Below are positions 5,283 to 25,619 of a DNA stretch of 64,000 nucleotides, piece by piece. The DNA comes from Planctomycetota bacterium (GTDB taxonomy: Bacteria; Planctomycetota; Phycisphaerae; WQYP01): contig JAJZDN010000008.1 of assembly GCA_021805985.1 (NCBI GenBank), forward strand, positions 26,319 to 90,318. Reading direction: 5' to 3'. Every line of letters begins with the position of its first letter. Position 1 is the first letter of the stretch. A program made the position numbers and the translations under genes. Below the pieces are notes generated by a model, which was not told the origin of the DNA, ran no database searches, and saw only the letters and a list, made by a program, of their open reading frames with translations.

Positions 5283-7115
5283 ATGAAGCCGAGAAAATTA
5301 AGCATAGTGGCGAATTCGGCCCTGGCCCACGTGGCTATTGCATTGGCTCTGTCGGGTGCGCAATGTGGGCAGGCGATCGGGGAAATTACTCCCGGCTTCA
5401 TGAAGGGTGTCCTTTCCGGCGCGATAAAGACCCGGCCACTTCTCGGCACGCTCGCCTTAAATCCTGTGAAGAGTATTGCGATCCATATAAAGCCTTTGCA
5501 CTCCAAGCTCCTGATTGGTGGCGGTGCGACGTTGAAGGAGTCCTTCCACAACACCGGAACACAGCCTGCCTCCATCGGGTTCAGCATTCCCTGGTCCGGT
5601 TCGTTGCAGAAGTTTTCGGTCACAGGCCCAGCACAACCTGTGGAACGAACGAGGCTTTCCCGTTGGTGGCCCGGTAGTTATCGCTCCTTTATGTTCCACA
5701 CTTCAGTAGCTGTCATGGCAATAAAAGGGGGCCAAGTGTTGCGCCGACCAGGCGTCCTGCTGCCCGGCTCAATCTTTGATATGACGGTGCCCGGCACGTA
5801 CCATATCCGCACGGCTACCGGACCGACAAAATCGAACCAGACGGTGATCGTAATGTTGCCTCCTAACGTCGATAATCGCCCCCTGCGTCCATTTGTTGTA
5901 CCGCCAGGCGATGCTTGGCCCCGCGCCGTCGTATGGGGCAGACCTTGGCATGGCCTTATGGTTCGCCTTTACCAAATTAAGTCCAGGAAAAGGCACGCGG
6001 AGACTGGCTTCAGGTTGAGGGTGATGATCCGTAACCGTAATAGCAGTCCAACTTCCATCAGGCTGGTGGGTGTTGCGGCGGGGGATTTCGCAAAAATGCG
6101 CATTTACGGTCCGAACGGTATTTATTCCAACGCTCGAAAAGGGAAGAAAGTTAACCTCACGAATATCCCGGTTCCATTGACCGCTTATGGCAAGCTGCTG
6201 GCGAGTGGAGGATTGGCGAAGGTAAAGAAAACAAGTTTCACGCTGCAACCCAGGACCACATACGAATACGCGCCTTTGATAATACCGAATGCAACCCATG
6301 ACTTGTCATTGCCGGGACGGTACCGATTACAGGTGGAACTCGCGGGTACGCATTGTTGGTCGAATGTTGTGTCCCTGGGCCGACAACTTTCAATAACACC
6401 GATATCGCCGTCTATTGGCGATGTCGGACCGATTCGCCCGCCGGTTGAATCAGTCAGTGGCATTACCGCACGCCTGATTCCTGGTGCATCAGGCGTGCTG
6501 GTCAAGGCCCAGCTCGTGGATGCGGGCGCAGCGAAAGCCTATGTGCTACAAGGGCCGGGAAGCGGTTGGACGTTGCGTGCGTTCAAGATAAAGGGCGGGC
6601 GGTTGCTGACGACGCCCCGGACGCCTAAGGGCCGCCATATGCAGGTTGACCGCAACATGGGTATGTCGCCCCCTGCGACGATCATAACGAGCCGGGTTGT
6701 GGGAGTTGAATCATTTCCCTTGCCCCAATATTTCGTGTTTTCGGCCCCTGGAAAGTATATCGTTAGCGCGAGCCGCTGGATTGGCATCAGAGGTCGGAAG
6801 CAATGGGTCCGCCTCACGACGAACCTTCTCGAGCTGACCCTGGACCGCGCGGGAAAGGCCACTTGGAAAACGCGAAACGTCCATTGGCCTAAGCCAGTCC
6901 CGCGAAAGGTTCCGCCAGCATCGCGATTGCAGTCGAGCGAGATTCCCAAGTCCTGTCCGGTCGCGCCCCTGGCCGAACTCGCAGCGGCTATCAATCAGCG
7001 AAATGTTCAAACGGTAACCCGCGCCGGTAACAAGGCAACACCATCGGCGTGGCCAAGGTGGCGTGGCCAAGGGGAATCTTTCAGCGCAGCATGGAGAGTA
7101 AGGCAGCGACTGTAG
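5283..7115 (+). CDS. Large secreted hypothetical protein
   Basis: AAAGAGG RBS, then a signal peptide MKPRKLSIVANSALAHVAIALALSGAQCG. The ORF track's upstream extension from 5103 has no RBS and was rejected. Confidence 0.5.
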   Translation: MKPRKLSIVANSALAHVAIALALSGAQCGQAIGEITPGFMKGVLSGAIKTRPLLGTLALNPVKSIAIHIKPLHSKLLIGGGATLKESFHNTGTQPASIGFSIPWSGSLQKFSVTGPAQPVERTRLSRWWPGSYRSFMFHTSVAVMAIKGGQVLRRPGVLLPGSIFDMTVPGTYHIRTATGPTKSNQTVIVMLPPNVDNRPLRPFVVPPGDAWPRAVVWGRPWHGLMVRLYQIKSRKRHAETGFRLRVMIRNRNSSPTSIRLVGVAAGDFAKMRIYGPNGIYSNARKGKKVNLTNIPVPLTAYGKLLASGGLAKVKKTSFTLQPRTTYEYAPLIIPNATHDLSLPGRYRLQVELAGTHCWSNVVSLGRQLSITPISPSIGDVGPIRPPVESVSGITARLIPGASGVLVKAQLVDAGAAKAYVLQGPGSGWTLRAFKIKGGRLLTTPRTPKGRHMQVDRNMGMSPPATIITSRVVGVESFPLPQYFVFSAPGKYIVSASRWIGIRGRKQWVRLTTNLLELTLDRAGKATWKTRNVHWPKPVPRKVPPASRLQSSEIPKSCPVAPLAELAAAINQRNVQTVTRAGNKATPSAWPRWRGQGESFSAAWRVRQRL

Positions 7116-7510
7116 TGCTCGAAACCCGGCTTGTCGAGGTGATCATAGGACCCGGCGGCCAGGTGGCCTGGAGGACACATGGCGTCGCATTGCCGCAGCC
7201 TCCCGTCCGGAAAATTCCGCGACCGCCAGGGTAAAGAATGCCACATTAACATTTACGCGCTGCTCCGCCAGAGGATGGTAAACTTGAAAGCTCCTGGATG
7301 ACAACAGGCTCCTGGATGCTGGCAGATGTTATCGCAGGATGTATTGTCTCACATATTGCTGCACGGTGTTTGGTGTTTGCAAGATGTCTGCAAGATGTTT
7401 GCACGCATGGGCGGTTTGAAGTAACTTCAACCCTTGTGTAAACCGCTCCTTTCGGCCGCCACCTATGACGGGGCGGGTTTGCGCATGATCCTTGGCACAG
7501 CGGCGGATTC

Positions 7511-9535
7511 GTGACACTTATGCAGCGCGACAAGCAAACTTCAAAATCAGGCCAGTCTCCACCGGATGGGACGCCTGCAGCAGAGCATCCGCAGGGTGAT
7601 AAGCGATCAGAATTTGCATCCGCGGCGCCGTGGTCGCCTCCACCCAACGACACTATCGGTGATCCCAACGAATTCACCAATTTTCAGCTTATAAAGCACA
7701 TGTTCCAATTTGTGCGGCCGGTAAAATGGCTGGCGGTTCTGGCCTGTCTGCTGGTGGGATTGGGCGTCTTTTTAGAAATATCGGCTGTAGACCTCACGCG
7801 CGTGGTGATTAATACTGTCGGCACCACATTAAGTTCAGCGGGGACGGCGATCGCTGGGGGCACGCAAAAGCCGGACTGGAATGCCTTTCGTCATGGTTCG
7901 CTGCATGTGGCGTTGATCCTGGTGGGGATGTTGGCGTTTTTTATCATTCTTTCGAGTGTATGCAATTTTTTTCGCAGCATTACCAACACCCGCTTAAGCA
8001 TGGATATGGTATTTCACATGCGATCAGCGGTGTACGATCAACTTCAGCAGGTGGGCTTTTCATTTCATGACGCCCATTCCAGCGGGCAACTGATCAACCG
8101 GGCGTTGTCGGATCTGCATAACGTGCGGTTTTTTGTGAACTTGTCGCTGGTTTCCATCGCGGAAATTGTCGGTTACACAATTGGTTATAATATTTTAATC
8201 GCCACGATCAACCCCTGGGTGGGCCTAGCGTCCTTATTGCCGGTGCCCTTTTGGATCTGGTACATTCTGCGATTTGGAAAAAAAATGCGCCCGGTGCAGC
8301 GCGATCTCATGGCCACCGGCGATCAACTGGTCAATGTGTACAGCGAAAATGTCGCCGGCGTAAACGTGGTCAAGGCTTTTGCTACCGAAACCACGGAAAC
8401 CGGCAAATACAACGCCACTGCCGATACTTATTTTTCTCAGGTGATGACCACCGTGGGCATGTGGGCGAATTTTATTCCCGTGATTCGGGGAATCGCCACG
8501 GGAGCCAATCTGCTGCTGTTTTTTCTGGGTGCCATGCTGGCGGTCAGCGGAAAACTGCACGCCGGTGATATTCTGGTATTTGGCGTAGCGATGGGAGCGA
8601 TCCTCTCACGCTTACAACAAATTAACCAGATCGCCAACCAATATCAGATGGCCGTGGTTTCCGCCCGGAGGTTTTTTGAAATTCTCTATGCGTATCCCAG
8701 TATCCCACAAGCAGCCGCATTACCGCAGTTGCCACGCGGGCCGGGCGCGGTGGAATTTTCCGGCGTTAGCTTTGGCTATCATCAGGAAAAGCCGGTCTTA
8801 AAAAATATCTCTTTTCAGGCACCTCCCGGTTCGGTTATAGCGCTGGTGGGGCCTACGGGTGCCGGCAAAACCACGATGATGCAGCTTCTCGCCCGCTTCT
8901 ATGACCCGCAGGCCGGGGCGATTTTTGTGGATGGTCATGATATTCGATCGGTTTCCCTGCGCTCGGTGCGGCAGGCTATGGGTTTTGTATTTCAGGAGAC
9001 CTTTCTTTTCTCGGACACCGTAATTAACAACATCCGCTATGGTGATCCCAAGGCCTCCGTGGAGCAGGTGGAGGCGGCGGCGCGGATTGCCCAGGCCCAT
9101 GAATTTATTATGGACATGCCAAAACAATATGACACCATGCTGGGCGAACGCGGGCTGACGCTTTCCGGAGGGCAGAAGCAGCGATTGGCCATCGCCCGGG
9201 CCATTGTAGCCAATCCGCGCATTCTCATCCTTGACGACGCCCTGGCCGCCGTGGATCCGGAGACCGAACACCTCATTCGCCGCGCTTTGGAACTCGTGTT
9301 ACAGGATCGCACCGTTTTTATCATCGCCCACCGTTTAAGTACGGTCAAAGCGGCTGATCTGGTGCTGGTGCTGGAAGAGGGAACGATTACGCAGGCCGGC
9401 ACGCATGACGTGCTATTGCGACAGCACGGGCATTACCGGGAAATTGCCCAGGTGCAGCTTGTCGGTGGCGGTCCGGGCGTCCTGCCACCGCTGGGATCAA
9501 CAGCGCGGCGCGTTGCCGCGGAGGGAACGCTATGA
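7511..9535 (+). CDS. ABC transporter permease/ATP-binding protein (exporter, heterodimer subunit A)
   Basis: An N-terminal 6-TM domain followed by Walker A GPTGAGKTT, an LSGGQKQR signature and a Walker B ILILDD. The start may be GTG at 7511 or ATG at 7520. Confidence 0.9.
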   Translation: MTLMQRDKQTSKSGQSPPDGTPAAEHPQGDKRSEFASAAPWSPPPNDTIGDPNEFTNFQLIKHMFQFVRPVKWLAVLACLLVGLGVFLEISAVDLTRVVINTVGTTLSSAGTAIAGGTQKPDWNAFRHGSLHVALILVGMLAFFIILSSVCNFFRSITNTRLSMDMVFHMRSAVYDQLQQVGFSFHDAHSSGQLINRALSDLHNVRFFVNLSLVSIAEIVGYTIGYNILIATINPWVGLASLLPVPFWIWYILRFGKKMRPVQRDLMATGDQLVNVYSENVAGVNVVKAFATETTETGKYNATADTYFSQVMTTVGMWANFIPVIRGIATGANLLLFFLGAMLAVSGKLHAGDILVFGVAMGAILSRLQQINQIANQYQMAVVSARRFFEILYAYPSIPQAAALPQLPRGPGAVEFSGVSFGYHQEKPVLKNISFQAPPGSVIALVGPTGAGKTTMMQLLARFYDPQAGAIFVDGHDIRSVSLRSVRQAMGFVFQETFLFSDTVINNIRYGDPKASVEQVEAAARIAQAHEFIMDMPKQYDTMLGERGLTLSGGQKQRLAIARAIVANPRILILDDALAAVDPETEHLIRRALELVLQDRTVFIIAHRLSTVKAADLVLVLEEGTITQAGTHDVLLRQHGHYREIAQVQLVGGGPGVLPPLGSTARRVAAEGTL

Positions 9536-11529
9536 AGCCGCGATTTCCCTTTTCACGCCGCCGGACGGACAACCCGCAGTCCGCAGCGCAACAGCGCACG
9601 GGGCCATCCGGCGGCGTATCGCCCTTGGATTCAGATTTTGAGCCCGATCGCAAGCCTATTGAACGCAAGGTTCTCCGGGGCGTGCTGGGCTGGATGCGGC
9701 CCTATCGCAATGCCTATATTCTTACCACCGTGGTGGGCACGATGGTGAATTTACTGGAAATGATCACGCCGCGTTATATGCAGCAATTGGTGGACACGGA
9801 TATTCCCGGAAAACATCCAAATATATTCACATCCTTTATTATCAATATGATCACGGAGGTTAATGTCGGGGCCGCGGGAACGCTGGCGCATCTGGGTCGG
9901 CGGGAGCTGGCGTATTGGAATATTACATCCACCATTGCTGCGTGGGCTTTAACCATGACTTTGGCGCTGCTGCTGCAGCGCTTCGGAATTTATTACACCA
10001 CATTGATCGGGCAGAAAGTGATTTTCACGCTGCGCCGGGCGGTTTTCGCGCATTTGCAGGAACTGTCCATGAACTTCTATGACAAAACACGTTTCGGCCG
10101 CATTCTCACGCGGGGCACCAGCGATATTGATTCCATGTCCAATTTTATCGTCTGGGGGATCAATACCGCTTTTTCCAACCTTACCATGATGCTCATTGCC
10201 GCAGGCATTATCATGCTGATGGACTGGCGCATCGGGCTGGCGGTACTGTGGCTGGGGCCGGTGCTTTATTTAATGAATAACTTTTATCGCCGGAAAGTGG
10301 GCGTCGCGTGGCGCATGACGCGTGAAGGCTATACACGCGTGAGCACCAATCTGGCGGAAAATATTTCCGGGATGCGCGTCGTGACCGCTTTTAACCGGCA
10401 GAATCAGAATCTGGATGTGTTTAATGATCTGCAAACCACCAACACCGCCAATAACATGCACGCCGCCTATATCAACGGCATTTATCAACCCCTGCTGGGG
10501 GTGGTGGGCTTTCTGGGAAAAGTCATTATTCTCCTGTTTGGCGCGTGGCTAGTTTTCCATACCGCCCATGGCCCGGCAAACCAGCGATTCAAAGTCGGGG
10601 AACTTGTGGCATTGTATGTTTACTGGGACTGGTTTATGGGGCCGGTCATTAACTTCGGCAATTTTTACAATGACACCATGATGGCCATGGCGTGTGCTGA
10701 GCGTGTCCAGAATCTGCTGGCGGAAAAGCCGCAAGTCACGGATGTACCCGATGCTCTGACACTTGCGGAAATTCGCGGTTCTGTGCGCTTTGAGCACGTA
10801 ACCTTCGGCTACGATCCCGCTAAGCCGGTGTTGCATGATGTTAATTTTGACGCCCAGGCAGGACAAACCATTGCGCTGGTCGGGCAGACCGGCTGCGGCA
10901 AATCCACGGTGATCAGTCTGATCTGCCGATTCTATCAACCCCAGCAGGGGCGAATTCTTATTGATGGTCATGATTTGCGGAAGATTCAGGGCGAAAGCCT
11001 GCACCGACAAACCGGAATTGTTTCTCAGAATAATTTTCTCTTCACAGGTACCGTCATGGATAACATCCGGTACACCCGCCCGGATGCGACGGACCAGCAG
11101 GTGCATGACGCCGCCCGGCAGTTGGATTGCTATGACATACTCTCTCGGCTTAAAGACGGTTTCCAGACCGATGTGGGTGAACGCGGCGGGTCACTTAGTC
11201 TGGGCCAGCGGCAACTGGTCTGCTTCTGCCGGGCGTTTCTGGCCAATCCCCGAATTTTAATTCTCGATGAAGCCACCAGCGCCATTGATACGCAAACCGA
11301 ACTGCTGATTCAAAAGGCTCTGGAACGCCTGGTGGAAAACCGCACCACGTTTATCGTAGCGCATCGCTTGAGCACCATCATTGGCGCCCATCAGGTGCTG
11401 GTGCTGGATCAGGGCCGTATTGTTGAACACGGAACTCATCAGAGCCTTCTGGATCACAATGGCCAATACGCCCGGCTCTACTACGAATTTACCCATGGCC
11501 ATGACGTTGCGCCGCATCAGGCTCCGTAG
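9532..11529 (+). CDS. ABC transporter permease/ATP-binding protein (exporter, heterodimer subunit B)
   Basis: ATGA start/stop overlap with the upstream subunit. Walker A GQTGCGKST, signature LSLGQRQ and Walker B ILILDEATSAID. Confidence 0.9.
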   Translation: MKPRFPFSRRRTDNPQSAAQQRTGPSGGVSPLDSDFEPDRKPIERKVLRGVLGWMRPYRNAYILTTVVGTMVNLLEMITPRYMQQLVDTDIPGKHPNIFTSFIINMITEVNVGAAGTLAHLGRRELAYWNITSTIAAWALTMTLALLLQRFGIYYTTLIGQKVIFTLRRAVFAHLQELSMNFYDKTRFGRILTRGTSDIDSMSNFIVWGINTAFSNLTMMLIAAGIIMLMDWRIGLAVLWLGPVLYLMNNFYRRKVGVAWRMTREGYTRVSTNLAENISGMRVVTAFNRQNQNLDVFNDLQTTNTANNMHAAYINGIYQPLLGVVGFLGKVIILLFGAWLVFHTAHGPANQRFKVGELVALYVYWDWFMGPVINFGNFYNDTMMAMACAERVQNLLAEKPQVTDVPDALTLAEIRGSVRFEHVTFGYDPAKPVLHDVNFDAQAGQTIALVGQTGCGKSTVISLICRFYQPQQGRILIDGHDLRKIQGESLHRQTGIVSQNNFLFTGTVMDNIRYTRPDATDQQVHDAARQLDCYDILSRLKDGFQTDVGERGGSLSLGQRQLVCFCRAFLANPRILILDEATSAIDTQTELLIQKALERLVENRTTFIVAHRLSTIIGAHQVLVLDQGRIVEHGTHQSLLDHNGQYARLYYEFTHGHDVAPHQAP

Positions 11530-15438: not shown

Positions 15439-15712
15439 CGCTCCAGCCCTTAATGCGGCCCCGGCTCGGTTTGCGGCCATGATTGGCGGCCTTGCCGGCC
15501 CAACGTAACTTATGATTTCTTTTTCTGCGTGCCATGTTCTGATCCTTAAGCCTATCAACCGTCCATTAACAAATTCAAAGCTCCGCAGTATACCCCGGAC
15601 GCCAGAAAATCGCAAAAGCCCGGACCTGATGCTGGGATCTGATGAGAAAATCCAAGCGAAAAGCCGCCTTCCCGCCTTGCCGTTGACGGCTGCTGGGGAT
15701 ACTGTGGCGGGC

Positions 15713-17236
15713 ATGTCGAATCGCCGATGGTTTAAGTTTTATTGCGTTGTGGGGGTAATTCTCGGGATTGTGTTTTTGGCCCCGACGCTGCGTGCCATGG
15801 CACCCCCTGGCCAGATGCGCATTGCCTTAGACGGCGGCGTGGTTCCCCATGTAAATTCTTGGGTAACACTGCGGCTGACACTTCCGCCAGTTTCAGGCAG
15901 CAATATTACCGTGGAACTTCAGGATCTTCGCGGCGGCCCGACTGTTCGCCGCCGCTTGGCGGTGTATCGCCGCCATATTCTTATGCCCATGCCCTATGTT
16001 TCCGGGGCGGGCGGCTTGGGCGGCGCGTGGCCGGTGGTGGTCAAGCTTTTTCGTTCCGGGAAGCTCTTGGGGGTGCTGCACGCTCAGATTGACCTGCCTT
16101 TATCACACGCCGAAGGTGCAATATCTGTTGCGGTCCTCAGAGCGATGCGGTCAGAAATTCCGGCATTATCCTTAGCGTTGGGCAAACCGGTAACACCCCT
16201 GGTATTCTCCCGCCGCCAACTGACCTCCTCGCCGGCGCTCACTGTTGCATCGTGTCGATGGTTATTGCTCAATGGGACTACCGCACAGCAACTTTCCCGC
16301 CGTCGGGTATTGGACCTATTGAGCTTGGGGATACGTCTGGTTTATTTCGGTGCCGGGCGGGGCAGCCTTTTGCCATCATCCGCTTGGAGGATCATCGGAA
16401 AATCCGCCAACGGTCTGGCGATCTGGAAAACCCTGAGGCTTAATGGTTTTTCCCGCGGCCCACCGATGGTTGTCCCTCATCTTTCCCGTATGCGATTGCC
16501 GCCGCTGCATGCCCCAACGTCATGGGAAATGGTCGCATGGGCCATTGGGCCCGTAACCATTCTCATGGCGATTCTGCTGCGCTGGGCAGTGCCACGAGGA
16601 TGGTATTTTATATTAAGCATTGCTATCGGCGTGGCGTTGCTTTCCACCGCTGCGGTTTGCTTTCTGACCGCCACCACCGCCGCAGCCCAAAGCACGTTTC
16701 ACTGGCAAACTGATTTTCCGACCGCACCGGTGCGCATAGGCACAACCATCCGAATAAATCGCGCGTTGCACGGCGCCGGCTGGGTGGCGCCCCATACGCG
16801 TGGCATCATGCTGCCGGTGGCGTGGTCGGCGCGGGCGTGGTTCGCCTTTCATGGGGTTATCAGTTTGCATCGCAACACGACCACGTTGGCCTATTCCATG
16901 ACGCGCCACGTTACCATTCTGGCCTGTCAAACCCGTGCTACGGTGACCTCCACGTTTCCGCGAGGCGCATTAAGGCCGTCCAGCGGGCCTTCAGGCGTGC
17001 GGGCTTCCGGGTTTCCAACCGGTTACAGCGCGTTATTTGCACAGGGGCAGATTTTTCTTTCCGCACATCCACGTCATGGCCGGGACTTTTATAATTGGCT
17101 CAACCGCCAACCTCCGCAGGTGCAATCTACGCTCCGCCTGTGGCTGTTGCTGCAATTTAATCCGCGGCGGCGCTATGCGCTGTATACCTCGGTGAACCGC
17201 TTGCGGGTCATGCCCCTGGCGGCTTCCCTGCACTGA
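15713..17236 (+). CDS. Hypothetical membrane protein
   Basis: Long ORF with several hydrophobic segments starting MSNRRWFKFYCVVGVILGIVFLA. No motif was recognised. The Arg-rich composition means part of it may be spurious. Confidence 0.35.
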   Translation: MSNRRWFKFYCVVGVILGIVFLAPTLRAMAPPGQMRIALDGGVVPHVNSWVTLRLTLPPVSGSNITVELQDLRGGPTVRRRLAVYRRHILMPMPYVSGAGGLGGAWPVVVKLFRSGKLLGVLHAQIDLPLSHAEGAISVAVLRAMRSEIPALSLALGKPVTPLVFSRRQLTSSPALTVASCRWLLLNGTTAQQLSRRRVLDLLSLGIRLVYFGAGRGSLLPSSAWRIIGKSANGLAIWKTLRLNGFSRGPPMVVPHLSRMRLPPLHAPTSWEMVAWAIGPVTILMAILLRWAVPRGWYFILSIAIGVALLSTAAVCFLTATTAAAQSTFHWQTDFPTAPVRIGTTIRINRALHGAGWVAPHTRGIMLPVAWSARAWFAFHGVISLHRNTTTLAYSMTRHVTILACQTRATVTSTFPRGALRPSSGPSGVRASGFPTGYSALFAQGQIFLSAHPRHGRDFYNWLNRQPPQVQSTLRLWLLLQFNPRRRYALYTSVNRLRVMPLAASLH

Positions 17237-17244
17237 TCAATGTT

Positions 17245-18183
17245 TTACAGACCCGCCAAGCGCACATCCTGCTGATCCAGGCAATGCCTTACCTGATCCA
17301 CATGTTCGCCCGTGAGTTGTTTAAGGGCTTCCAGATATTTTCGCCGCGTTTGCTGCACCACATCCGTGGGCAAGGTGGGGCCGGGCGGGCGTTTATTCCA
17401 GGTTAATGTTTCCAGATAATTTCTAACATATTGCTTATCAAAGCTGATCTGTTCCAGTCCTGGTTTGTAATCCACCAGGGGCCAGAAGCGCGAACTGTCT
17501 GGCGTGAGAACTTCATCTATAAGAATGGGGCGTCCGGTTTTCGCATCCAGTCCGAATTCAAATTTGGTGTCCGCCACAATCAGGCCGTGCAGGCGTGCCG
17601 CCTCTGCGGCAATATTGTAAAGCTTGATGGATGTATCACGTAATTCCGTCATCACGCCGCGCCCAACTTTATCGCATGCCTGATCAAACGTAATACTTTC
17701 ATCGTGCCCCTTTTCGGCCTTGGTCGTGGGCGTAAAAATGGGTGTGGGCAATTGCTGGGATAGCATCAAACCATGCGGTAATTTTACTCCGCAGATGGCA
17801 CCGTTTTTTTTGTATTCTTTCCAGCCGCCGCCGGCAATATAACCGCGTACCACGCATTCAATAGGTATCACCGCAGTTTTGCGCACCACCACCGATCGCC
17901 CAGCCAATTGCGCGCGAAAAGGCCTTAGCGCCGCGGGAAATTCCGCCGGCCGCGTGGCCAACAGATGGTGCTTGATATGCGGTGCGAAAAGTGTGAACCA
18001 GTAATTGCTTAATGCTGTGAGGATAATTCCCTTTTCCGGTATGGGCGTAGGTAAAATAACATCAAAAGCGCTGATGCGATCCGTAGCCACAATCAGCAAT
18101 TGCGTGCCAAGATCATACACATCGCGCACCTTGCCGCGCCGCAGTGGAAAACCGGGAATTTCTGTTTCTATAACCGTAGCCAA
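17245..18183 (-). CDS. purC: Phosphoribosylaminoimidazole-succinocarboxamide synthase (SAICAR synthetase, long form)
   Basis: GKVRDVYDLG, ADTKFEFG and the overall length match PurC. Confidence 0.9.
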   Translation of the reverse strand: MATVIETEIPGFPLRRGKVRDVYDLGTQLLIVATDRISAFDVILPTPIPEKGIILTALSNYWFTLFAPHIKHHLLATRPAEFPAALRPFRAQLAGRSVVVRKTAVIPIECVVRGYIAGGGWKEYKKNGAICGVKLPHGLMLSQQLPTPIFTPTTKAEKGHDESITFDQACDKVGRGVMTELRDTSIKLYNIAAEAARLHGLIVADTKFEFGLDAKTGRPILIDEVLTPDSSRFWPLVDYKPGLEQISFDKQYVRNYLETLTWNKRPPGPTLPTDVVQQTRRKYLEALKQLTGEHVDQVRHCLDQQDVRLAGL

Positions 18184-18451
18184 AATACTCTTCTGCCTTT
18201 CCAGTACCCTGAATCGCCGCTAGTTTAGAGATTCGCGGCCGGTATGCAATAGCGCCTCATTAGAGTGCCTCATTAGAGAAGAGAAAATAGAGAGTTGAAA
18301 GTAGCGCAAATTTGGCTGGCCCAAAACAGTGGCTGTGGCGGAGGCGGCGTGGCACCGGCAGAGATAGGCGCAACGTGTTGCCATATTTTTCATTATGACG
18401 GGTGTCAGTTGGCCAAGAGGGCCAGGTGTTTTAACCCTTGGCACTCAGGAG

Positions 18452-18466
18452 GGAGTTAGGAGTTAG
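18452..18466. repeat. GGAGTTA heptamer tandem repeat (2 copies), left boundary of the island
   Basis: ggagttaggagttag. Its reverse complement is found as 4 tandem copies at 21614-21646. Confidence 0.6.
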
Positions 18467-18804
18467 TGCGCGGTTACAGGCTACAGAAATCCGAGGGGGT
18501 AATTTTATTATTCTTTTCAGCGGTGCTTTTCCAATCTGCGGTAGATGGGATTGCTTTATCAGGCCTTTTCGATTTGTGACACTGCGTCACGAATTACGTG
18601 CTGTTGGCGCGCGTCGATCACACCGAGGCAAGGAGGCAGCAGAGAACTGGAGTTCCCCGCGCACCGATTAGGCACTTCGATACGCTGTATTGTGAGATGA
18701 GAAACCCGGCAGTGGGGGGGAGGCCAACGCTGCGCCGTTAGGGCGGGATTAAAGATTTCCGCAAGGCAGGTTATGATCCTGGCCGGAAAGACGAGGATTG
18801 ATCC

Positions 18805-20064
18805 ATGGTCCGATTAATTGAAACGATGAACTACCGATCACTGAAGCGCGTGCGGCAGGAGCTGGATGAGTTCCATGTGCTCGTGGGGCCTAATGCCAGC
18901 GGCAAGAGCACCTTCATGGACGTGTTGGCATTTCTAAGCCGCCTGGTGAACGATGGGTTGGATGCCGCGATTGCCGAGCGAGGTACGTTTGATGATCTCT
19001 GCTGGAACCGCGCGGGACAAAGGTTTGAATTGGCCATTGAGGTTGTCCTGCCGGAGGACTATCGGCAGCTACAGCACGTCTTTCGGGGCGTAGAGCCTTG
19101 CGCCATTCGGTATGAGTTGGCCATTGCAAAGGATGCAGCGGGCACTGTCAAGATCGTTGACGAGCAGGTGCTGCTGGCACGCGACAGCGCCACCTATGAT
19201 CCGGCGGCGTTGAGCAAGGGCATGGAGGATACGGTCTTCATGACGACCACCGGTAACGGTTCTTGGGTTAAGCTGTTAGCGACCACGAAGGCTGGCCCGG
19301 AGTATGCGCTCTCGCGGGAAGTCCAGGACCTCGCACGGCCAGATGAGGATCGATACCACGTGGTGTACCGTCCCAACGGCAAGCGGCCGATCTTTGGAAA
19401 TGTCTCCGAAATTGAGTTCCCGAGCACTGTTGCGCTGGGGCTGCTTCTAAGAGACCAAATCACCAGAGTCGATGTTCGGTCTGACGCCCTGCGTGCGCCG
19501 TCAGCTCCCGGCCAGGGGGCGAGGTTTTCTGGCGATGGGGGAAATCTTCCGTGGTTGATTGATGACCTGAAGGAGAACAAAGTACAGCAATATAGTGATT
19601 GGATCAGGCACGTGAAGACGGCGTTGCGGGGCTTCGAGAGCGTGCGGGTTGTCGAACGTCCGGAGGATCGGAAGCGGTATCTGATGATCCGGTATGCCGG
19701 CGGGCTTGAGGTGCCATCCTGGTGCTGCTCCGACGGTACGTTGTGCCTGCTGGCGCTGACTTTTCTGGCGTATCACTCCAAGCCTGGGGATGTCTATCTG
19801 GTGGAAGAACCGGAATCCCACATCCATCCACTGAACATCGAGCCGGTGATGCAATCCCTCGGCAGTGTTTATGGCGGGCAGGTGCTGGTCTCCACCCATT
19901 CGCCCGCCGTGCTGGCGTTAACGGACGTGGAGGACGTGCTGGCGTTCTCGGCTGATCCGCAAAATGGCACGCGCATTGTGCCCGGCAAGGACCATCCCCG
20001 GCTCCGGGATTGGAAGGGCGAGATAAGTCTCGGGACGCTGTTTGCCAGTGGAGTGCTGGGATGA
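18805..20064 (+). CDS. AAA_21 / ABC-type ATPase (OLD/RloA/AriA-like)
   Basis: Walker A GPNASGKST near the N-terminus, a long insert, then Walker B VYLVEEPESHIHP and an H-loop STHSP. This is the architecture of OLD/PARIS/Gabija-class ABC ATPases. Confidence 0.8.
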   Translation: MVRLIETMNYRSLKRVRQELDEFHVLVGPNASGKSTFMDVLAFLSRLVNDGLDAAIAERGTFDDLCWNRAGQRFELAIEVVLPEDYRQLQHVFRGVEPCAIRYELAIAKDAAGTVKIVDEQVLLARDSATYDPAALSKGMEDTVFMTTTGNGSWVKLLATTKAGPEYALSREVQDLARPDEDRYHVVYRPNGKRPIFGNVSEIEFPSTVALGLLLRDQITRVDVRSDALRAPSAPGQGARFSGDGGNLPWLIDDLKENKVQQYSDWIRHVKTALRGFESVRVVERPEDRKRYLMIRYAGGLEVPSWCCSDGTLCLLALTFLAYHSKPGDVYLVEEPESHIHPLNIEPVMQSLGSVYGGQVLVSTHSPAVLALTDVEDVLAFSADPQNGTRIVPGKDHPRLRDWKGEISLGTLFASGVLG

Positions 20065-20687
20065 GCAGCACGCGGGACATGGATCTGATCGTGCTGGTTC
20101 CCGGCAAAGATGAATCGGCGGCGTTAGAGGCGATGTTTGCTCGCCGGGAAGCAATTGGCATCCGTCCACTTCGCTACAAAATTGAGCGCCACGAGGAACG
20201 GGACCCGGGTTGTCGATTACAAGCACCCGTTTACCTGAGGTCGGCCATTACGCAGTTTGATCATGCGATCGTGATGTTTGACCGGGAAGGTTGCGGCAGA
20301 GAGCAGATGACTCGCGTGGAATTAGAGAAGGATTTGGAATCCAGGCTGGCAACTTCCGGTTGGGGTGACCGGGCGGCGGCAATTGTGATTGACCCCGAGC
20401 TTGAGAACTGGATATGGAGTGATTCACCGCGCGTGGATGATGTATTGGGCTGGAGAGGCAGAACACCTGATTTACGCCAGTGGCTGCGGGACCAACGCAT
20501 GTTGGCGGAAGGCCAGACCAAGCCGCCCCGGCCCAAAGAAGCAACGACCGCCGCCATGAAAAAAGTAATGAAGCGACGGACCTCTGATATCTACACGGAG
20601 ATCGCCTCGTGCGTGAGCCTGACGCGGTGTGTTGATCCGGCATTCTTGAAACTCTTGGGAGTTCTACGCGGCTGGTTTAAGGAGTAA
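20061..20687 (+). CDS. DUF4276/RloB-like small protein (predicted TOPRIM-like partner of the ATPase)
   Basis: ATGA translational coupling to the ATPase. About 208 aa with acidic motifs LIVLVPGKDES, IVMFDREGCGRE and IVIDPELENWIW, as in DUF4276/RloB-type TOPRIM-like proteins. The start was moved from 20010 to the coupled ATG at 20061. Confidence 0.5.
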   Translation: MSSTRDMDLIVLVPGKDESAALEAMFARREAIGIRPLRYKIERHEERDPGCRLQAPVYLRSAITQFDHAIVMFDREGCGREQMTRVELEKDLESRLATSGWGDRAAAIVIDPELENWIWSDSPRVDDVLGWRGRTPDLRQWLRDQRMLAEGQTKPPRPKEATTAAMKKVMKRRTSDIYTEIASCVSLTRCVDPAFLKLLGVLRGWFKE

Positions 20688-20693
20688 ATATCT

Positions 20694-20885
20694 ATGGCTA
20701 AGCAACCCTGGAAAGCGTGGCATGAGTTCGTGAAACCGCGGGATGACTTGCGCTCGGGCGAACTGCCGTTGCACATGTTCGCAGCCGACCTCTACGAAGT
20801 TATGATGCAGAACGGCAAGCGGCCGATCTACGAGAAGCCTGAGAACTTCTTCGCCCTGACTTTCCCCACGCACAACCTGTCTTGA
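20694..20885 (+). pseudogene. N-terminal fragment (63 codons) of a DUF499-type BREX/Pgl ATPase (brxC/pglY-like), truncated
   Basis: MAKQPWKAWHEFVKPRDDLRSGELPLHMFAADLYEVMM...ENFFALTFPT matches the conserved N-terminus of BrxC/PglY-family proteins, which are about 1200 aa. The ORF stops after 63 codons, right at the repeat block. Confidence 0.5.
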
Positions 20886-20900
20886 CGTCAATGATCGATG

Positions 20901-20918
20901 ACCACGGATCACGGATGG
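20901..20918. repeat. ACGGATC heptamer pair, inverted copy of the 21203-21290 array
   Basis: accacggatcacggatgg is the reverse complement of the downstream tgatccg repeat. Confidence 0.6.
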
Positions 20919-21030
20919 TTCTGAAGGCTATAGGCTCCGGGGGGCGGGGAAATCAGAATTTGCCAGTAATCGCAGCATTCATCAGTAGACCCAGCATTGG
21001 ACCGTGGATTCAGCATTGAGCAGCCAGCTC

Positions 21031-21087
21031 AGATTCCAGATCCCAAATTCCAAATTCCAGGTTCCAGGTTCCAGGTTCCAAATTCCC
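21031..21087. repeat. ATTCCAR heptamer tandem array (about 8 copies)
   Basis: agattccagatcccaaattccaaattccaggttccaggttccaggttccaaattcc. Confidence 0.8.
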
Positions 21088-21088
21088 C

Positions 21089-21170
21089 CTCTCCAATCGG
21101 GCCGCCGCCCGATCCGCTCTACTGCTCACCTCTCAAAATTCACCTCTCTAATCGGGCCGCAGCCCGATTT
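21089..21170. repeat. Two direct copies of a 27-bp element, each with a perfect GC-rich hairpin
   Basis: ctctccaatcgggccgccgcccgatcc and ctctctaatcgggccgcagcccgattt. Each contains the palindrome atcgggc-N4-gcccgat. Confidence 0.75.
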
Positions 21171-21202
21171 CCCGTGCCCCTCGCGCCCTATAGCCCCGGT
21201 AT

Positions 21203-21290
21203 TGATCCGTGATCCGTGATCCATGATCCATGATCCGTGATCCGTGATCCGTGATCCGTGATCCGTGATCCGTGATCCGTGATCCGTGAT
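21203..21290. repeat. TGATCCG heptamer tandem array (about 12 copies, two TGATCCA variants)
   Basis: tgatccgtgatccgtgatccatgatccatgatccg... read directly from the sequence. Confidence 0.9.
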
Positions 21291-21613
21291 AACTGATCAC
21301 CGCCCGCTATTTGAAAACCAAATAATCCCCCAAGATCGCATGGCCCGCAATCCACAACCGCCACGCGTCGCGTCCTAAACTCCTTGCCCTGCACGCAAAC
21401 TCCCCCTGTTTAGCGTCGTCGCCCGGCGACGAGCGCCGCCAATACCAGACCAACCCCACTGGTATCCGCGTAATCTGGGCAATCCGCAAAATCTGTGGAC
21501 CCTCCGCCTCCGCGCCCTCGACGACCTCTGTGGCTCTTTCCGGCTGTCCCCTGTAACCCGTAACCTCGCACGGCATCCCGCATTTAGCATTTAGCCGCGC
21601 AGCGCTTCCAAAA

Positions 21614-21646
21614 ACTTCTAACTCCTAACTTCTAACTCCTAAGTCC
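21614..21646. repeat. CTAACTY heptamer array (4 copies), inverted partner of 18452-18466, right boundary of the island
   Basis: cttctaactcctaacttctaactcctaagtcc. Confidence 0.6.
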
Positions 21647-22227
21647 GTTCTCGTAAACCCCAGAATACTAAAACCCAAAATAACTTGGCCATCTTGGCCA
21701 CCTTGAACCAAACCCTCTAAAATCAACCCCTTCCTCTACATGTCCAACCTGGCCACCTAGCCTCTTTAACCTGGCCTCCTTGGCCCCCTTTGGCCCCCTT
21801 GATATCCACCACAATGAGCAATCAATAAATGCTCACATATTCCAAACTCCTCATCCCTGCGTTTAAAAAACAGTTTTCCACCTTGCAGCCGGAAACGGGC
21901 GCGAAAACTCCCCGTCGCCCTTCCCGGCAAAACGCCAGACGCCGTCTGACAAATTGGAGGCCACTGCGATCGGCTCGGAATCAGCAAGCAAATCAGGAAG
22001 CATAATAATCCCGACACCGCCCGGACAATCCTCTCCGTTCCCTCCGCCACCTCTTGTGAATTAACGTCTTTTGCGTTCAGAATCATTGAATTGCTTTTTT
22101 TACCACGCAGGCGGGGGGTTGGGGTATACTTTGGGGCTGCGAAGGTGGCCTGGCCGCGGATGCGGTGGAATTTTGGGCGGGCGGTATAAAGAGTCCCGGT
22201 TGGCTATCGGGTTTGGAAAAGAGATTC

Positions 22228-22638
22228 ATGAGCAAAATACTGTTGGCAGTTTCCGAACAATGGACGCCGGATAAGCGCATGGACGCTCTGGGGCAGTGGG
22301 CCAATCGTATGGATGCGCCGATTATTGCGGTGCATGTGGTGGTGGGGCTTTCGGAAAGTGCCAAGGAAGATAGTCCGGGCGAACGGGCGCTTAAAGATGT
22401 TGTCATTCAGTTAAAAAAGACCAATCCGCGGGTAGAATCGCAGCTTTTATTTGCCAATGATCTGGTAGATGGACTTTTTCAGGCCGCTACCGAGCATGAA
22501 GCTACAATGATTGTGCTGGGGCTTTCCCGGCACGGTGTGCTGGAGCGGCTGATTGAAGGCAACATTCAGCGGGCGATTCTGAATAATAGCCGCCTGCCGA
22601 TTTTGGCTCTGCCACCCGATTGGAACGGCATTATCTGA
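22228..22638 (+). CDS. Universal stress protein family (UspA-like)
   Basis: About 137 aa. ILLAVSE...IIAVHVV...TMIVLGLSRHGVLERL matches the Usp alpha/beta fold pattern. Confidence 0.7.
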   Translation: MSKILLAVSEQWTPDKRMDALGQWANRMDAPIIAVHVVVGLSESAKEDSPGERALKDVVIQLKKTNPRVESQLLFANDLVDGLFQAATEHEATMIVLGLSRHGVLERLIEGNIQRAILNNSRLPILALPPDWNGII

Positions 22639-22682
22639 TTAAACGGTTGCCATGAAATATTATTTGAAGGTTTTACAAAATT

Positions 22683-25619
22683 ATGAACGCGCAAGCTGCC
22701 CCTGTGATTTCCAACGTTGATTCCCGAGCCGGCCGGAATTGGGCTTTACTGGAACCGGCGGGTGGGTTTGCCGCCCGCCATAACGGCCCGTCCGACGATG
22801 AAGTTGTGCTGATGCTGCAAACGCTCGGGCTGGCTTCCCTGGATGATCTGGTGGATAAGACCGTTCCGTCCGCCATCCGCATGAGCCGCAAACTGGCGCT
22901 GCCCGCGCCGCTTTCCGAACGCGCGCTATTGGAAAAATTAAATGTCATGGGATCGAAAAATAAAAAATTTCGGTCGCTCATCGGCATGGGCTATTACGGC
23001 TGCATCACGGCACCGGTTATACAGCGCAACATTCTGGAAAATCCGGGTTGGTATACCCAATATACGCCTTACCAGGCGGAAATTGCCCAAGGGCGGCTGG
23101 AAGCCTTGCTGAATTTCCAGACCATGATAGCAGAACTTACCGCATTACCTGTTTCCAATGCGTCCTTATTGGATGAAGCCACCGCCGCCGCGGAAGCCAT
23201 GGCCATGTGCCATTCCGTCGCCGAGCCGGGGCGTAACGTATTTTTCATCGCAGAAAATTGCCATCCACAAACCATTGACGTGGTGCACACCCGTGCCATG
23301 GGCCTGGGCATTACGCCGGTGGTCGGTGCTGCGTCACAAATAGATTGCAAATCCGGAAAAATCTTCGGCATGTTGGTGCAATATCCCGCAACCGACGGCC
23401 AGATTATTCCCCTGGATGAGCTGGCGAAGCAGGCCCATCACGGCGGAATTAAACTCGTGGTAGCAACAGATCTTCTGACCCTGACCATCCTGCGGCCGCC
23501 GGGAGAATTCGGAGCTGATATTGCCGTGGGTTCCAGCCAGCGGTTGGGAATGCCGATGGGGTACGGCGGCCCACATGCGGGTTTCCTGGCGGCACGGGAG
23601 GAATTTACCCGGAAAATGCCAGGACGCATTGTGGGTATTTCGCGGGATGTCAATGGCGAGCCGGCCTACCGACTGGCGATTCAAACCCGGGAACAACACA
23701 TTCGGCGGGAAAAAGCCACCAGCAACATCTGCACCGCGCAGGTTTTGCCGGCGATTATTTCTGCCGCGCACGCGATCTATCATGGCCCGCAAGGCCTGAC
23801 GGATATTGCCCTGCGCATCCATGCCTGGACGCTGGTTTTGGCCGGCGGATTGGAACGCATGGGCTACAAAATCATGCATGAACATTATTTTGATACGCTG
23901 CGAATTATTCCATCGCCCGGCGTAACAACCCAACAAATTATACAGGACGCCGCAACGCGGAAATTTAATTTCCGTCCATTCGGGGACGGAACTATTGGCT
24001 TATCCCTGGATGAATTAACGGATCTTGAAGAAGTGCACTCGCTACTGCATGTATTTTCGCAGGGCCGGCCTCTGCCTTATCTGCTGAATCAAGTGGTCCA
24101 GGATATGCGTATGCAATATCCAACGGCCCTGGCCCGTACCAGCCGTTTCCTGACGCATCCGGTATTTAATACCCACCATAGCGAAACCGAAATACAACGT
24201 TATTTGCGCATGCTGGAATCACGGGATCTTTCATTGACCACGTCCATGATTCCGCTGGGGTCATGCACAATGAAACTTAATGCCGCCGTGGAAATGATGC
24301 CCATCACCGCACCGCATTGGGCGGATGTACACCCATTCTGCCCGCCGGATCAGGCGGCGGGTTATCAGATTTTAATGAGCCAGCTTGAACGGTTTTTATG
24401 TGAAATTACAGGCTTCTCGGCCGTATCATTCCAGCCCAATGCGGGTTCTCAGGGCGAATACGCCGGCTTAATGACGATTCGGGCGTACCATAGCGGGCAG
24501 GGGCAATCGGGTAGAAATATCTGCCTGATTCCCGTTTCCGCGCATGGCACCAATCCGGCCAGTGCGACCGTCGCGGGTTTGCAGGTCGTGCCGGTGGCCT
24601 GCGATGCGCACGGCGATATTGATCTGCAGGATTTGCGCCGCCTAGCGCAACAGCATCAGGAAAATCTCTCCTGTCTGATGGCAACTTACCCCTCCACGCA
24701 CGGGGTATTTGAAGAGCATATCCGGGAAATTTGTGACATTGTTCATGCCCATGGCGGCCAAATTTACATGGACGGGGCCAACATGAACGCCCAGGTGGGC
24801 CTGTGTCGTCCGGCGGATATGGGGGCGGATGTCTGCCACTTGAATTTGCATAAAACCTTTTGTATTCCGCATGGCGGTGGCGGCCCGGGAATGGGTCCCA
24901 TCGCCGTGGCTGAACATCTGATTCCGTATTTGCCGGGCCACCCGGTAATTGGCATGGGCACCGCCAAATCCCTGGGAACCATTTCCGCGGCACCGTATGG
25001 CAGTGCTTTAATTCTTATTATTCCATGGGCATATATCAGTCTGATGAGTGGTTCAGGCCTGACCCGTGCCACGGAACTGGCCATCCTGAATGCCAATTAC
25101 ATGGCTGCCCGCTTAAAAGAACATTATCCGATCCGTTTTGTCGGCACACGCGGGTTCTGTGCCCATGAATTTATTGTGGATGCCAGAGAGTTTGAAGCCT
25201 CAGCGGGAATTAAAGTTGAAGACATCGCCAAGCGCCTCATGGACTACAGCTTTCACGCGCCGACCGTTTCCTGGCCGGAGCCAGGGACATTGATGATTGA
25301 ACCCACGGAAAGCGAAAGTAAAGCAGAGTTGGACCGTTTTTGTGATGCCATGATCGCGATCCGCAATGAAATAAGGGAAATTGAAAGCGGGAAAGCCGAT
25401 CGTAAAAACAACGTGCTGAAAAATGCTCCGCATACGGCGCGCATGTTGGCCAGCGAAACATGGCCCCATGGCTACAGCCGCGAAAAGGCTGCCTATCCGC
25501 TGGATTATCTGAAAGCCCATAAATTTTGGCCGGCGGTCGGGCGCATAGATAATCCGTATGGTGATCGTAACCTGGTGTGCTCCTGCCCACCGATGCCGCA
25601 AAAAGAGGAAATATCATGA
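22683..25619 (+). CDS. gcvP: Glycine dehydrogenase (decarboxylating), single-chain P-protein
   Basis: 978 aa. The region around SMIPLGSCTMKLNA, and the lysine context CHLNLHKTFCIPHGGGGPGMGP, are diagnostic of GcvP. Confidence 0.9.
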   Translation: MNAQAAPVISNVDSRAGRNWALLEPAGGFAARHNGPSDDEVVLMLQTLGLASLDDLVDKTVPSAIRMSRKLALPAPLSERALLEKLNVMGSKNKKFRSLIGMGYYGCITAPVIQRNILENPGWYTQYTPYQAEIAQGRLEALLNFQTMIAELTALPVSNASLLDEATAAAEAMAMCHSVAEPGRNVFFIAENCHPQTIDVVHTRAMGLGITPVVGAASQIDCKSGKIFGMLVQYPATDGQIIPLDELAKQAHHGGIKLVVATDLLTLTILRPPGEFGADIAVGSSQRLGMPMGYGGPHAGFLAAREEFTRKMPGRIVGISRDVNGEPAYRLAIQTREQHIRREKATSNICTAQVLPAIISAAHAIYHGPQGLTDIALRIHAWTLVLAGGLERMGYKIMHEHYFDTLRIIPSPGVTTQQIIQDAATRKFNFRPFGDGTIGLSLDELTDLEEVHSLLHVFSQGRPLPYLLNQVVQDMRMQYPTALARTSRFLTHPVFNTHHSETEIQRYLRMLESRDLSLTTSMIPLGSCTMKLNAAVEMMPITAPHWADVHPFCPPDQAAGYQILMSQLERFLCEITGFSAVSFQPNAGSQGEYAGLMTIRAYHSGQGQSGRNICLIPVSAHGTNPASATVAGLQVVPVACDAHGDIDLQDLRRLAQQHQENLSCLMATYPSTHGVFEEHIREICDIVHAHGGQIYMDGANMNAQVGLCRPADMGADVCHLNLHKTFCIPHGGGGPGMGPIAVAEHLIPYLPGHPVIGMGTAKSLGTISAAPYGSALILIIPWAYISLMSGSGLTRATELAILNANYMAARLKEHYPIRFVGTRGFCAHEFIVDAREFEASAGIKVEDIAKRLMDYSFHAPTVSWPEPGTLMIEPTESESKAELDRFCDAMIAIRNEIREIESGKADRKNNVLKNAPHTARMLASETWPHGYSREKAAYPLDYLKAHKFWPAVGRIDNPYGDRNLVCSCPPMPQKEEIS

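Follow-up and report, generated by a model that had tools for sequence, protein, structure and literature searches.

What is the 63-codon open reading frame (ORF) at positions 20694-20885 of the forward strand in a 64,000-nt stretch of Planctomycetota DNA (from contig JAJZDN010000008.1; the whole stretch is called the window below): a small gene in its own right, or what is left of a larger one, and if so of which system? A preliminary description, made from the letters alone, had read it as the N-terminal relic of a BREX/Pgl-type DUF499 ATPase (brxC/pglY-like), cut off at a repeat block where such a locus was later deleted or replaced. Our analysis indicates that the ORF is quite probably a non-functional 5′ stub of hmaC, the DUF499 ATPase gene of Hma (helicase-methylase-ATPase) phage-defence systems, and that it stands at the edge of a MAD3/MAD4 gene module derived from an Hma operon. 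A 2.13-kb piece (18750-20879) would have been cut from the middle of an Hma operon in which MAD3 and MAD4 were embedded, with the stub as its right-hand edge.

The ORF starts with ATG and encodes the peptide that had been quoted for it. A word-indexed protein search with the 63 amino acids (aa) listed 50 matches, the best with E = 1.7e-31 at 89% identity. All 50 were short (42-109 aa), their lengths were unequal, several were frameshifted, and in the alignment the longer ones continue through a stretch that opens with NLRxLV and ends in GGGKTH, the Walker A motif. Because of these varying lengths, frameshifts and continuations into the Walker A region, we interpret the short matches as fragments from contig ends or frameshifted genes. 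An exhaustive search of 1.84 billion representatives returned 303 proteins with E <= 1e-3 and 129 with E <= 1e-10; its full-length matches were 1,095-1,110 aa long, and no alignment extended past query residue 62. This N-terminus recurs with 77-95% identity at 80 genome loci, and wherever the contig is long enough it begins an ORF of ~1,100-1,124 aa, in agreement with the length of over 1000 aa that had been assumed for complete members. The best hmaC matches are in Phycisphaerae metagenome-assembled genomes. These sequence comparisons confirm that the stub is the 5′ end of an hmaC-type DUF499 ATPase gene of >1,000 aa and not an independent small gene. In the homologues the Walker A motif starts ~25 residues past the cut, so that the stub lacks the P-loop (Walker A/B) AAA+ core and therefore cannot be an ATPase. 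The cut falls within a conserved block rather than at a domain border, and an AlphaFold model of the 63 aa had low confidence (pLDDT, the per-residue score, 62; pTM, the global score, 0.40), too low for fold searches. As a side observation, several independent database fragments of the hmaC N-terminus (P0006, P0007, P0008, P0018, P0030 and P0036) turn out of frame around codons 45-66, e.g. '...TWCCGWRARTIK'; this may merely reflect that the search favours short proteins.

The parent system was assigned from profile matches and gene partners. On their own, the 63 aa reached no Pfam or NCBIfam model. Against the PADLOC library at E <= 1, HmaC was their sole match (E = 4.1e-7, residues 7-61 on profile positions 4-57 of 941), with no match to BrxC/PglY; the library holds models of BREX components (BrxHI/II, PglX) and presumably of BrxC/PglY as well. 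The full-length relatives matched Pfam DUF499 (E = 1.2e-15, above the gathering score), NCBIfam 'anti-phage-associated DUF499' below its cut-off, and in PADLOC HmaC (E = 3.7e-73) together with a generic DUF499 model, with nothing else at E <= 1e-5. In one intact relative (L006) the genes upstream of the DUF499 gene encode HmaA, an SNF2 helicase (E = 3e-153), and HmaB, a DUF1156 methylase (E = 1e-113). Neither the window nor the intact relatives contained pglZ, pglX or brxA/B/L, and no solved structure was related to HmaC by sequence. Given the HmaC and DUF499 profile matches and the HmaA/HmaB partners, the parent system is Hma and not BREX/Pgl. The preliminary description had thus recognised a truncated N-terminal DUF499 relic correctly (62 of the 63 codons match homologues) and had given the N-terminal motif correctly, attaching to it an outdated family label. 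Hma systems centred on DUF499 have a deep evolutionary relationship to BREX; for BrxC proper, DUF6079 is now the best description, and the equation of BrxC with DUF499 is outdated (PMC12839542).

The point of truncation could be placed to the base. In a DNA alignment with five close homologues, conservation runs through CACAACCTG and is absent beyond it, and the last homologous base is therefore 20879, in Leu62. BLASTN against the closest relatives also stops at this position. The break (20879|20880) is within unique sequence; a single codon separates it from the stop, and 8 nt separate it from an imperfect, repeat-rich palindrome of ~410 nt, so that the cut at a repeat block, as originally described, was accurate within a few bases.

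Two intact genes precede the stub (Table 1), and their starts and stops are tightly spaced: the MAD4 start overlaps the MAD3 stop (ATGA), and the stub follows MAD4 with the 7-nt spacing seen in intact operons. MAD3 matched NCBIfam antiphage_MADS3 (NF047739) with E = 5e-119 and 398 bits, just below the equivalog cut-off of 420, as well as PADLOC HEC-01A (E = 6e-37) and mad3 (E = 4.5e-35) and Pfam AAA_21 and AAA_15. MAD4 matched NCBIfam antiphage_MADS4 (NF047734) with 200.6 bits, above the cut-off of 160, and PADLOC mad4 and HEC-01B; its match to Pfam DUF4276 was weak (E = 0.004). HEC stands for 'Hma-embedded candidate', and HEC-01, an ABC ATPase with a TOPRIM-like protein, is found embedded in Hma operons and also outside them (bioRxiv 10.1101/2024.01.29.577857). 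Upstream of MAD3 we found the counterpart of the hmaC stub: the last 16 codons of hmaB (KDFRKAGYDPGRKDED) and their stop, identical at 16/16 aa to the end of the gene upstream of MAD3 in two relatives (L128 and L135) and at 13/16 to the 1,088-aa PADLOC HmaB of another (L129). DNA homology on this side starts at 18750 against L128, L135 and L136 and at 18754 against L129, and nothing to the left of 18750 is similar to hmaB.

The closest relatives of MAD3 (93% aa identity) are in L128, L135 and L136, where the pair is flanked on one side by a long ORF with the end ...KDFRKAGYDPGRKDED* and on the other by an hmaC that continues for 379 aa or more (PADLOC HmaC, E = 9e-58). Positions 18750-20879 of the window are 92% identical in DNA to these contigs as far as they extend, and nothing outside this segment matches. 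Because the match is so confined, the window holds a mid-operon Hma slice of 2.13 kb, consisting of an hmaB tail (52 nt), MAD3, MAD4 and an hmaC head (186 nt). More than the 5′ end of one gene has therefore survived, contrary to what had been supposed. MAD3-MAD4 is found just upstream of the DUF499 gene in ~10 of the 80 loci. The order hmaB - MAD3 - MAD4 - hmaC occurs in L032, L129 and L141-L143, with an extra 415-aa ORF between MAD4 and hmaC in L032, and in L129 and L141 the segment lies inside complete hmaA/hmaB/hmaC operons. Beyond the two stubs, sensitive tblastn, tblastx and blastn searches with several reference sets found no further hmaA, hmaB or hmaC sequence in any frame of the 64 kb. 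With 16 codons of hmaB, 62 of hmaC and no hmaA, the locus does not qualify as an Hma system, although it derives from an Hma operon. In L141-L143 (13434-15411) a complete Phycisphaerae Hma operon with embedded MAD3-MAD4 is followed by DUF2924 and large serine recombinase genes, which suggests that this complete system rides on an integrative element.

Table 1. Coordinates of the features at the locus (positions in the window).
Feature	Coordinates	Strand	Remarks
Strain-specific 3.86-kb insert between purC and usp	18256-22119		lacking in close relative L086
Leader block, 54 nt	18643-18696	+	common to window and L133/L134; local alignment
hmaB (DUF1156 methylase) 3′ stub, last 16 codons + TGA	18750-18801	+	coding from 18751
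MAD3 / HEC-01A, ABC-type ATPase, 419 aa	18805-20064	+	intact
MAD4 / HEC-01B, DUF4276 (TOPRIM-like), 208 aa	20061-20687	+	intact
Shine-Dalgarno sequence AAGGAG	20679-20684	+	9 nt 5′ of the stub ATG; adjoins the MAD4 stop codon
hmaC stub, 62 homologous codons	20694-20879	+	followed by foreign TCT (20880-20882) and TGA (20883-20885)
Imperfect palindrome, ~410 nt	20888-21300		outer arms are heptamer arrays: CACGGAT (~3 copies), GATCCGT (12.6 copies)
Inner palindrome arms	20926-20952 and 21169-21195
TTCCAGG-type array	21030-21086		inside palindrome
Two hairpins	21095-21113 and 21151-21169		inside palindrome
Remaining non-coding right flank	21301-22119		C-rich on + strand; short arrays, including AACTYCT at 21613-21646

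How the slice came to its present place was approached through a close relative that lacks the insert. In the window the pair is surrounded by purC, usp, gcvP, an MFS transporter gene and a GH106 gene, and no other defence gene was found within 10 kb, the surroundings being housekeeping genes. In L086, a metagenome contig with aa identities to the window of 94% (PurC), 93% (Usp) and 91% (GcvP), purC and usp stand back to back with a 381-bp spacer. Its alignment to the window breaks off after 18255 and resumes at ~22120, with 138 unrelated bases of its own in between; neither a target-site duplication nor reuse of these 138 bases was found. A brxC/pglZ/pglX cluster, which the preliminary description had proposed to look for at this place in related genomes, is thus not what the relatives hold: the L086 site is empty, and intact relatives elsewhere carry hmaA and hmaB. 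Between the EPSP synthase gene and purC lies a 535-aa ORF (15629-17236) with no Pfam match; it is 53% identical in L086, as against 91-94% for its neighbours, and appears to be a fast-evolving gene.

A second standalone copy of the pair (L133/L134) lies in a different context, beside a PEP-CTERM protein gene, and has the same left junction as the window. The two copies also share the 54-nt leader block of Table 1, with an alignment score of 28 as compared to a maximum of 17 in 500 shuffles (0/500 reach it); this stretch is not similar to hmaB of L128 or L129 and may serve the module as its own promoter or upstream region. In L133/L134, MAD3 and MAD4 are intact while both scars are decayed: the hmaB tail retains 12/17 aa and has lost its stop, and the hmaC head is reduced to <=66 nt at ~67% identity, with ATG changed to CTG and an in-frame TAG. 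Other standalone pairs, in L132 (beside proB), L139 and L140 (between gatA and gatB), have no stub at all. Two further features of these loci were recorded: a direct repeat of ~130 bp in the upstream region of L133 (1-1090), around 1-100 and 557-660, and, on the 2.4-Mb contig L140, where the pair lies inside a gatCAB operon (6457-11408), heptamer arrays nearby at 5794-5829 and 6320-6359.

Since a copy at another locus shares the left junction, the module is suggested to have arrived already without hmaA and hmaB. Alternatively, a complete hmaA-hmaB-MAD3-MAD4-hmaC operon may once have stood between purC and usp and decayed in place through two flanking deletions. Stubs of both neighbouring genes are the leftovers expected from such deletions, the flanks of the insert consist of odd, repeat-rich non-coding DNA, Phycisphaerae do have complete Hma islands with the pair embedded, next to a serine recombinase, and the small number of changes in the stub (see below) means that hmaC was probably intact until recently. 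However, both deletions would have had to spare the embedded pair exactly, 18256-18749 contains no hmaA or hmaB remnant, the L086 site is cleanly empty, and the left junction and leader shared with L133/L134 imply that the left truncation predates at least one placement of the module. We therefore consider decay of a complete operon in situ unlikely. As to the earlier proposal that a whole locus once sat here and was then deleted, the part that concerns hmaC finds support, in that the substitution counts favour a longer hmaC until recently, while a complete locus at this site is unsupported in view of the empty site in L086 and the L133 junction. The preferred course of events has two steps: hmaA and hmaB would have been lost first, at the junction held in common with the L133/L134 copy, and hmaC would have been cut later, fairly recently, with the deletion endpoint at the foot of a hairpin-forming repeat block.

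Several observations weigh against this reading or complicate it. The stub is an intact ORF behind a strong Shine-Dalgarno sequence, and its differences from L128 comprise 3 non-synonymous and 8 synonymous ones; the resulting ratio of non-synonymous to synonymous rates (dN/dS) is 0.085, compared with 0.16 for MAD3 and 0.15 for MAD4. These features make continued constraint on the peptide possible. No allele with a longer hmaC was found at the locus, and all contigs with the identical stub, MAD3 or Usp share one structure. The embedded copy L128 is nearer to the window (synonymous divergence, dS, 0.22-0.30) than the standalone copy L133 is (0.38-0.47), and because of this, a single origin of the shared left junction requires a near-trichotomy of window, L128 and L133 with a fast L133 branch, which is the shape of the tree that we obtained. 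The order of events is accordingly uncertain, and a single origin of the junction is possible but not proven. Mosaic structure was rejected as the cause of the tree conflict, the window being closer to L128 than to L133 in 13 of 14 comparable windows of ~150 nt. Finally, in the single published test, carried out in E. coli, HEC-01 on its own did not protect against phage (bioRxiv 10.1101/2024.01.29.577857), for which reason we infer, rather than observe, that MAD3/MAD4 is a working unit. In P. aeruginosa, mad3 and mad4 are both needed for MADS defence (bioRxiv 10.1101/2023.03.30.534895). As the genes in the window are intact and under purifying selection, they presumably form a working ATPase-nuclease pair like those of OLD, Gabija and PARIS.

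The number of substitutions bears on both the age of the cut and the possibility that the peptide has a function. With seven outgroups used for polarisation, 4-5 changes in the stub are unique to the window. Unique change on the window branch amounts to 8.6% at 4-fold sites of MAD3/MAD4, and about 16 changes would be expected if the stub had been neutral along the whole branch (P ~0.001). There are too few changes for a stub that has long been neutral, which points to a recent cut or to continuing constraint on the stub. Were the latter the case, the 63-aa peptide might act as an adaptor or regulator of MAD3/MAD4, or interfere with incoming Hma systems as a dominant-negative fragment; the intact ORF with its ribosome-binding site, the operon-like 7-nt spacing after MAD4, the low dN/dS and the shortfall of changes relative to neutrality would all fit. 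The stub is also identical in all 10 contigs of the population, although this reflects membership of one population only. Against a function, two of the window-specific changes, V12F and L15P, affect positions that are invariant in eight close comparators (L15 is also conserved in >=90% of a 38-sequence alignment), the cut lies inside a conserved block, the structure model is of low confidence, and standalone pairs in L132, L139 and L140 manage without a stub. Moreover, the L133 stub lost its start codon, gained a stop and has diverged at a nearly neutral rate, while the MAD3 and MAD4 beside it stayed intact. A functional peptide is thus highly improbable. A recent cut is favoured over constraint by the replacements V12F and L15P, by the decayed L133 stub and by the weak structure model, and judging from these sequences the cut probably is recent. 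Given its good ribosome-binding site the stub may well be translated as the last cistron, but it is most likely without function, as had been surmised at the outset. The possibility raised then, that it might be a conserved independent gene, does not agree with the fragmentary nature of its short matches or with the decayed L133 stub.

A different role could be imagined for the stubs at the DNA level, as homology arms through which the cassette recombines into or out of resident Hma operons. Such exchange would explain why many different cassettes are embedded in these operons: 62.7% of Hma systems carry embedded genes between core genes, in 376 distinct cassettes (bioRxiv 10.1101/2024.01.29.577857). 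The cassette in the window has pieces of both flanking genes, the embedded L128 copy and the standalone window copy are close relatives from the same metagenome series, and gene flow between embedded and standalone forms would ease the tree puzzle described above. However, the left arm would be only 52 nt long and in the variable tail of HmaB, the stubs of L133 are decaying, the three other standalone pairs have none, and direct evidence of exchange was not found. A special conservation of the hmaC 5′ end, as expected of an 'anchor', was looked for in independently ascertained proteins and rejected: the first 62 residues are ~70% identical as compared to ~75% for the adjoining ATPase core. Recombination through the stubs therefore has a very small probability in our judgement. 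The broader proposition, in which the stubs are homology arms and the standalone copies a shuttle form or, in a weaker variant, the 63-aa fragment is a partner of MAD3/MAD4, is very unlikely.

The repeats beside the break also required us to consider whether the hmaC 5′ end had been wrongly joined to another locus during assembly. Assemblies do break inside the GATCCGT array on both sides: 3 of 5 metagenome contigs of the locus end inside heptamer arrays, and matching contigs from the same samples begin inside them. The hmaC break, however, is in unique sequence, 8 nt before the repeats, and every contig crosses it. Two other, independent assemblies span the whole region with a single mismatch each (99.99% identity), three shorter contigs agree with the window to their ends, and both sides of the insert are anchored by synteny with L086. 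A misassembly is, for these reasons, extremely improbable.

The same repeats may have had a part in the loss of hmaC. Folded as single-stranded DNA, the palindrome reaches -72.9 kcal/mol, compared with -57.3 +/- 4.4 for shuffled sequences (z = -3.5), and since the break lies so near to it, a hairpin-associated deletion of hmaC is supported. Palindromes are known to stimulate deletions, and an endpoint at the base of a long hairpin would be in keeping with this. We infer the link between hairpin block and deletion endpoint from this proximity. We also asked whether heptamer arrays are common in this genome or typical of Hma loci, and rejected both ideas: the rest of the 64 kb has no array of at least 4 heptamers, and 1.59 Mb of fetched loci yielded only 7, of which none is tied to Hma.

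The remainder of the flanks gave few further clues. The 1.24 kb of non-coding DNA at 20886-22119 is packed with heptamer arrays (CACGGAT, TTCCAGR/TTCCAAA, GATCCGT and AACTYCT), and the GC skew is ~ -0.3 to -0.4 across 21000-22000 (down to -0.41). ORFs in 21301-22119 had no Pfam match and the region contained no hmaA, hmaB or hmaC remnant; Pfam searches with short ORFs of both flanks were likewise negative, and an Rfam search of 18100-22700 gave a single match at chance level. Terminal inverted repeats around the module were sought, but the weak collinear inverted matches obtained (18407-18486 against 21544-21703, E ~0.001-0.05) are unconvincing as marks of a mobile element. They consist mostly of two terminator-like hairpins (GGCCAAGAnGGCC followed by a T-run) at 18409-18425 (+) and 21686-21700 (-), which are mutually inverted and flank the module. 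A 30-nt stretch at 21933-21963 (CGCCAGACGCCGTCTGACAAATTGGAGGCCA) matches the part of DUF1016/YhcG-like PDDEXK nuclease genes that encodes 'RQTPSAKFEA' (blastn E 2e-4), and genes with this match sit upstream of hmaC in L057 (8980-9010), L050 (1958-1984) and L075 (1178-1202). The match has no significance at the protein level, and we regarded it as a chance similarity; a very small remnant of a further embedded gene is the alternative.

For annotation, the ORF is a pseudogene fragment; it merits neither a gene entry nor a place among BREX components. It also calls for caution with automated defence callers, as the peptide matches the HmaC model and the old equation of DUF499 with BrxC invites a wrong BREX call. 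Beyond this, the stub is a dated scar of the exit of a standalone MAD3/MAD4 (HEC-01) pair from an Hma operon. As such, it is direct sequence evidence that connects a free-standing defence module with its embedded form, and it illustrates how defence systems of several genes lose parts.

Among known systems, the stub is most like HmaC, the DUF499 AAA+ ATPase of Hma systems, which are also called 'BREX-related' (BR) systems (PADLOC PDLC00662, Pfam PF04465, NCBIfam NF042962), both in its residues 1-62 (77-95% identical) and in its position directly after MAD4 at the spacing of intact operons. DUF499/HmaC proteins are ~1,000-1,100 aa long and have winged helix-turn-helix (wHTH) and C-terminal RRM-like domains (PMC12839542), whereas the stub keeps 62 of ~1,110 codons and has neither the Walker A motif nor the wHTH domains or the C-terminal RRM-like region. 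BrxC/PglY proteins are distant homologues of like architecture, an N-terminal ORC/Cdc6-like AAA+ ATPase being followed by wHTH domains, and BrxC was labelled DUF499 in older literature, but BrxC (DUF6079) and the DUF499 ATPases fall into separate clades (PMC12839542). The MAD3/MAD4 pair matches the models of HEC-01 and of Pseudomonas MADS MAD3-MAD4, which in relatives is embedded between hmaB and hmaC and also occurs standalone; the pair in the window is standalone and yet bears scars of both Hma neighbours. The other genes of the eight-gene MADS system are absent from the window, and MAD6, MAD7 and MAD8 are mandatory in the detection model of its authors. With ordinary truncated remnants the stub shares a sharp end of homology, one or two foreign codons leading to a chance stop, decay in a sister copy and an empty site in a relative, and it differs from them in nothing essential. 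Less usual are the retention of both flanking stubs and a cut that abuts a 410-nt palindrome of heptamer arrays. The stub is, in sum, a routine gene remnant with a neat provenance.

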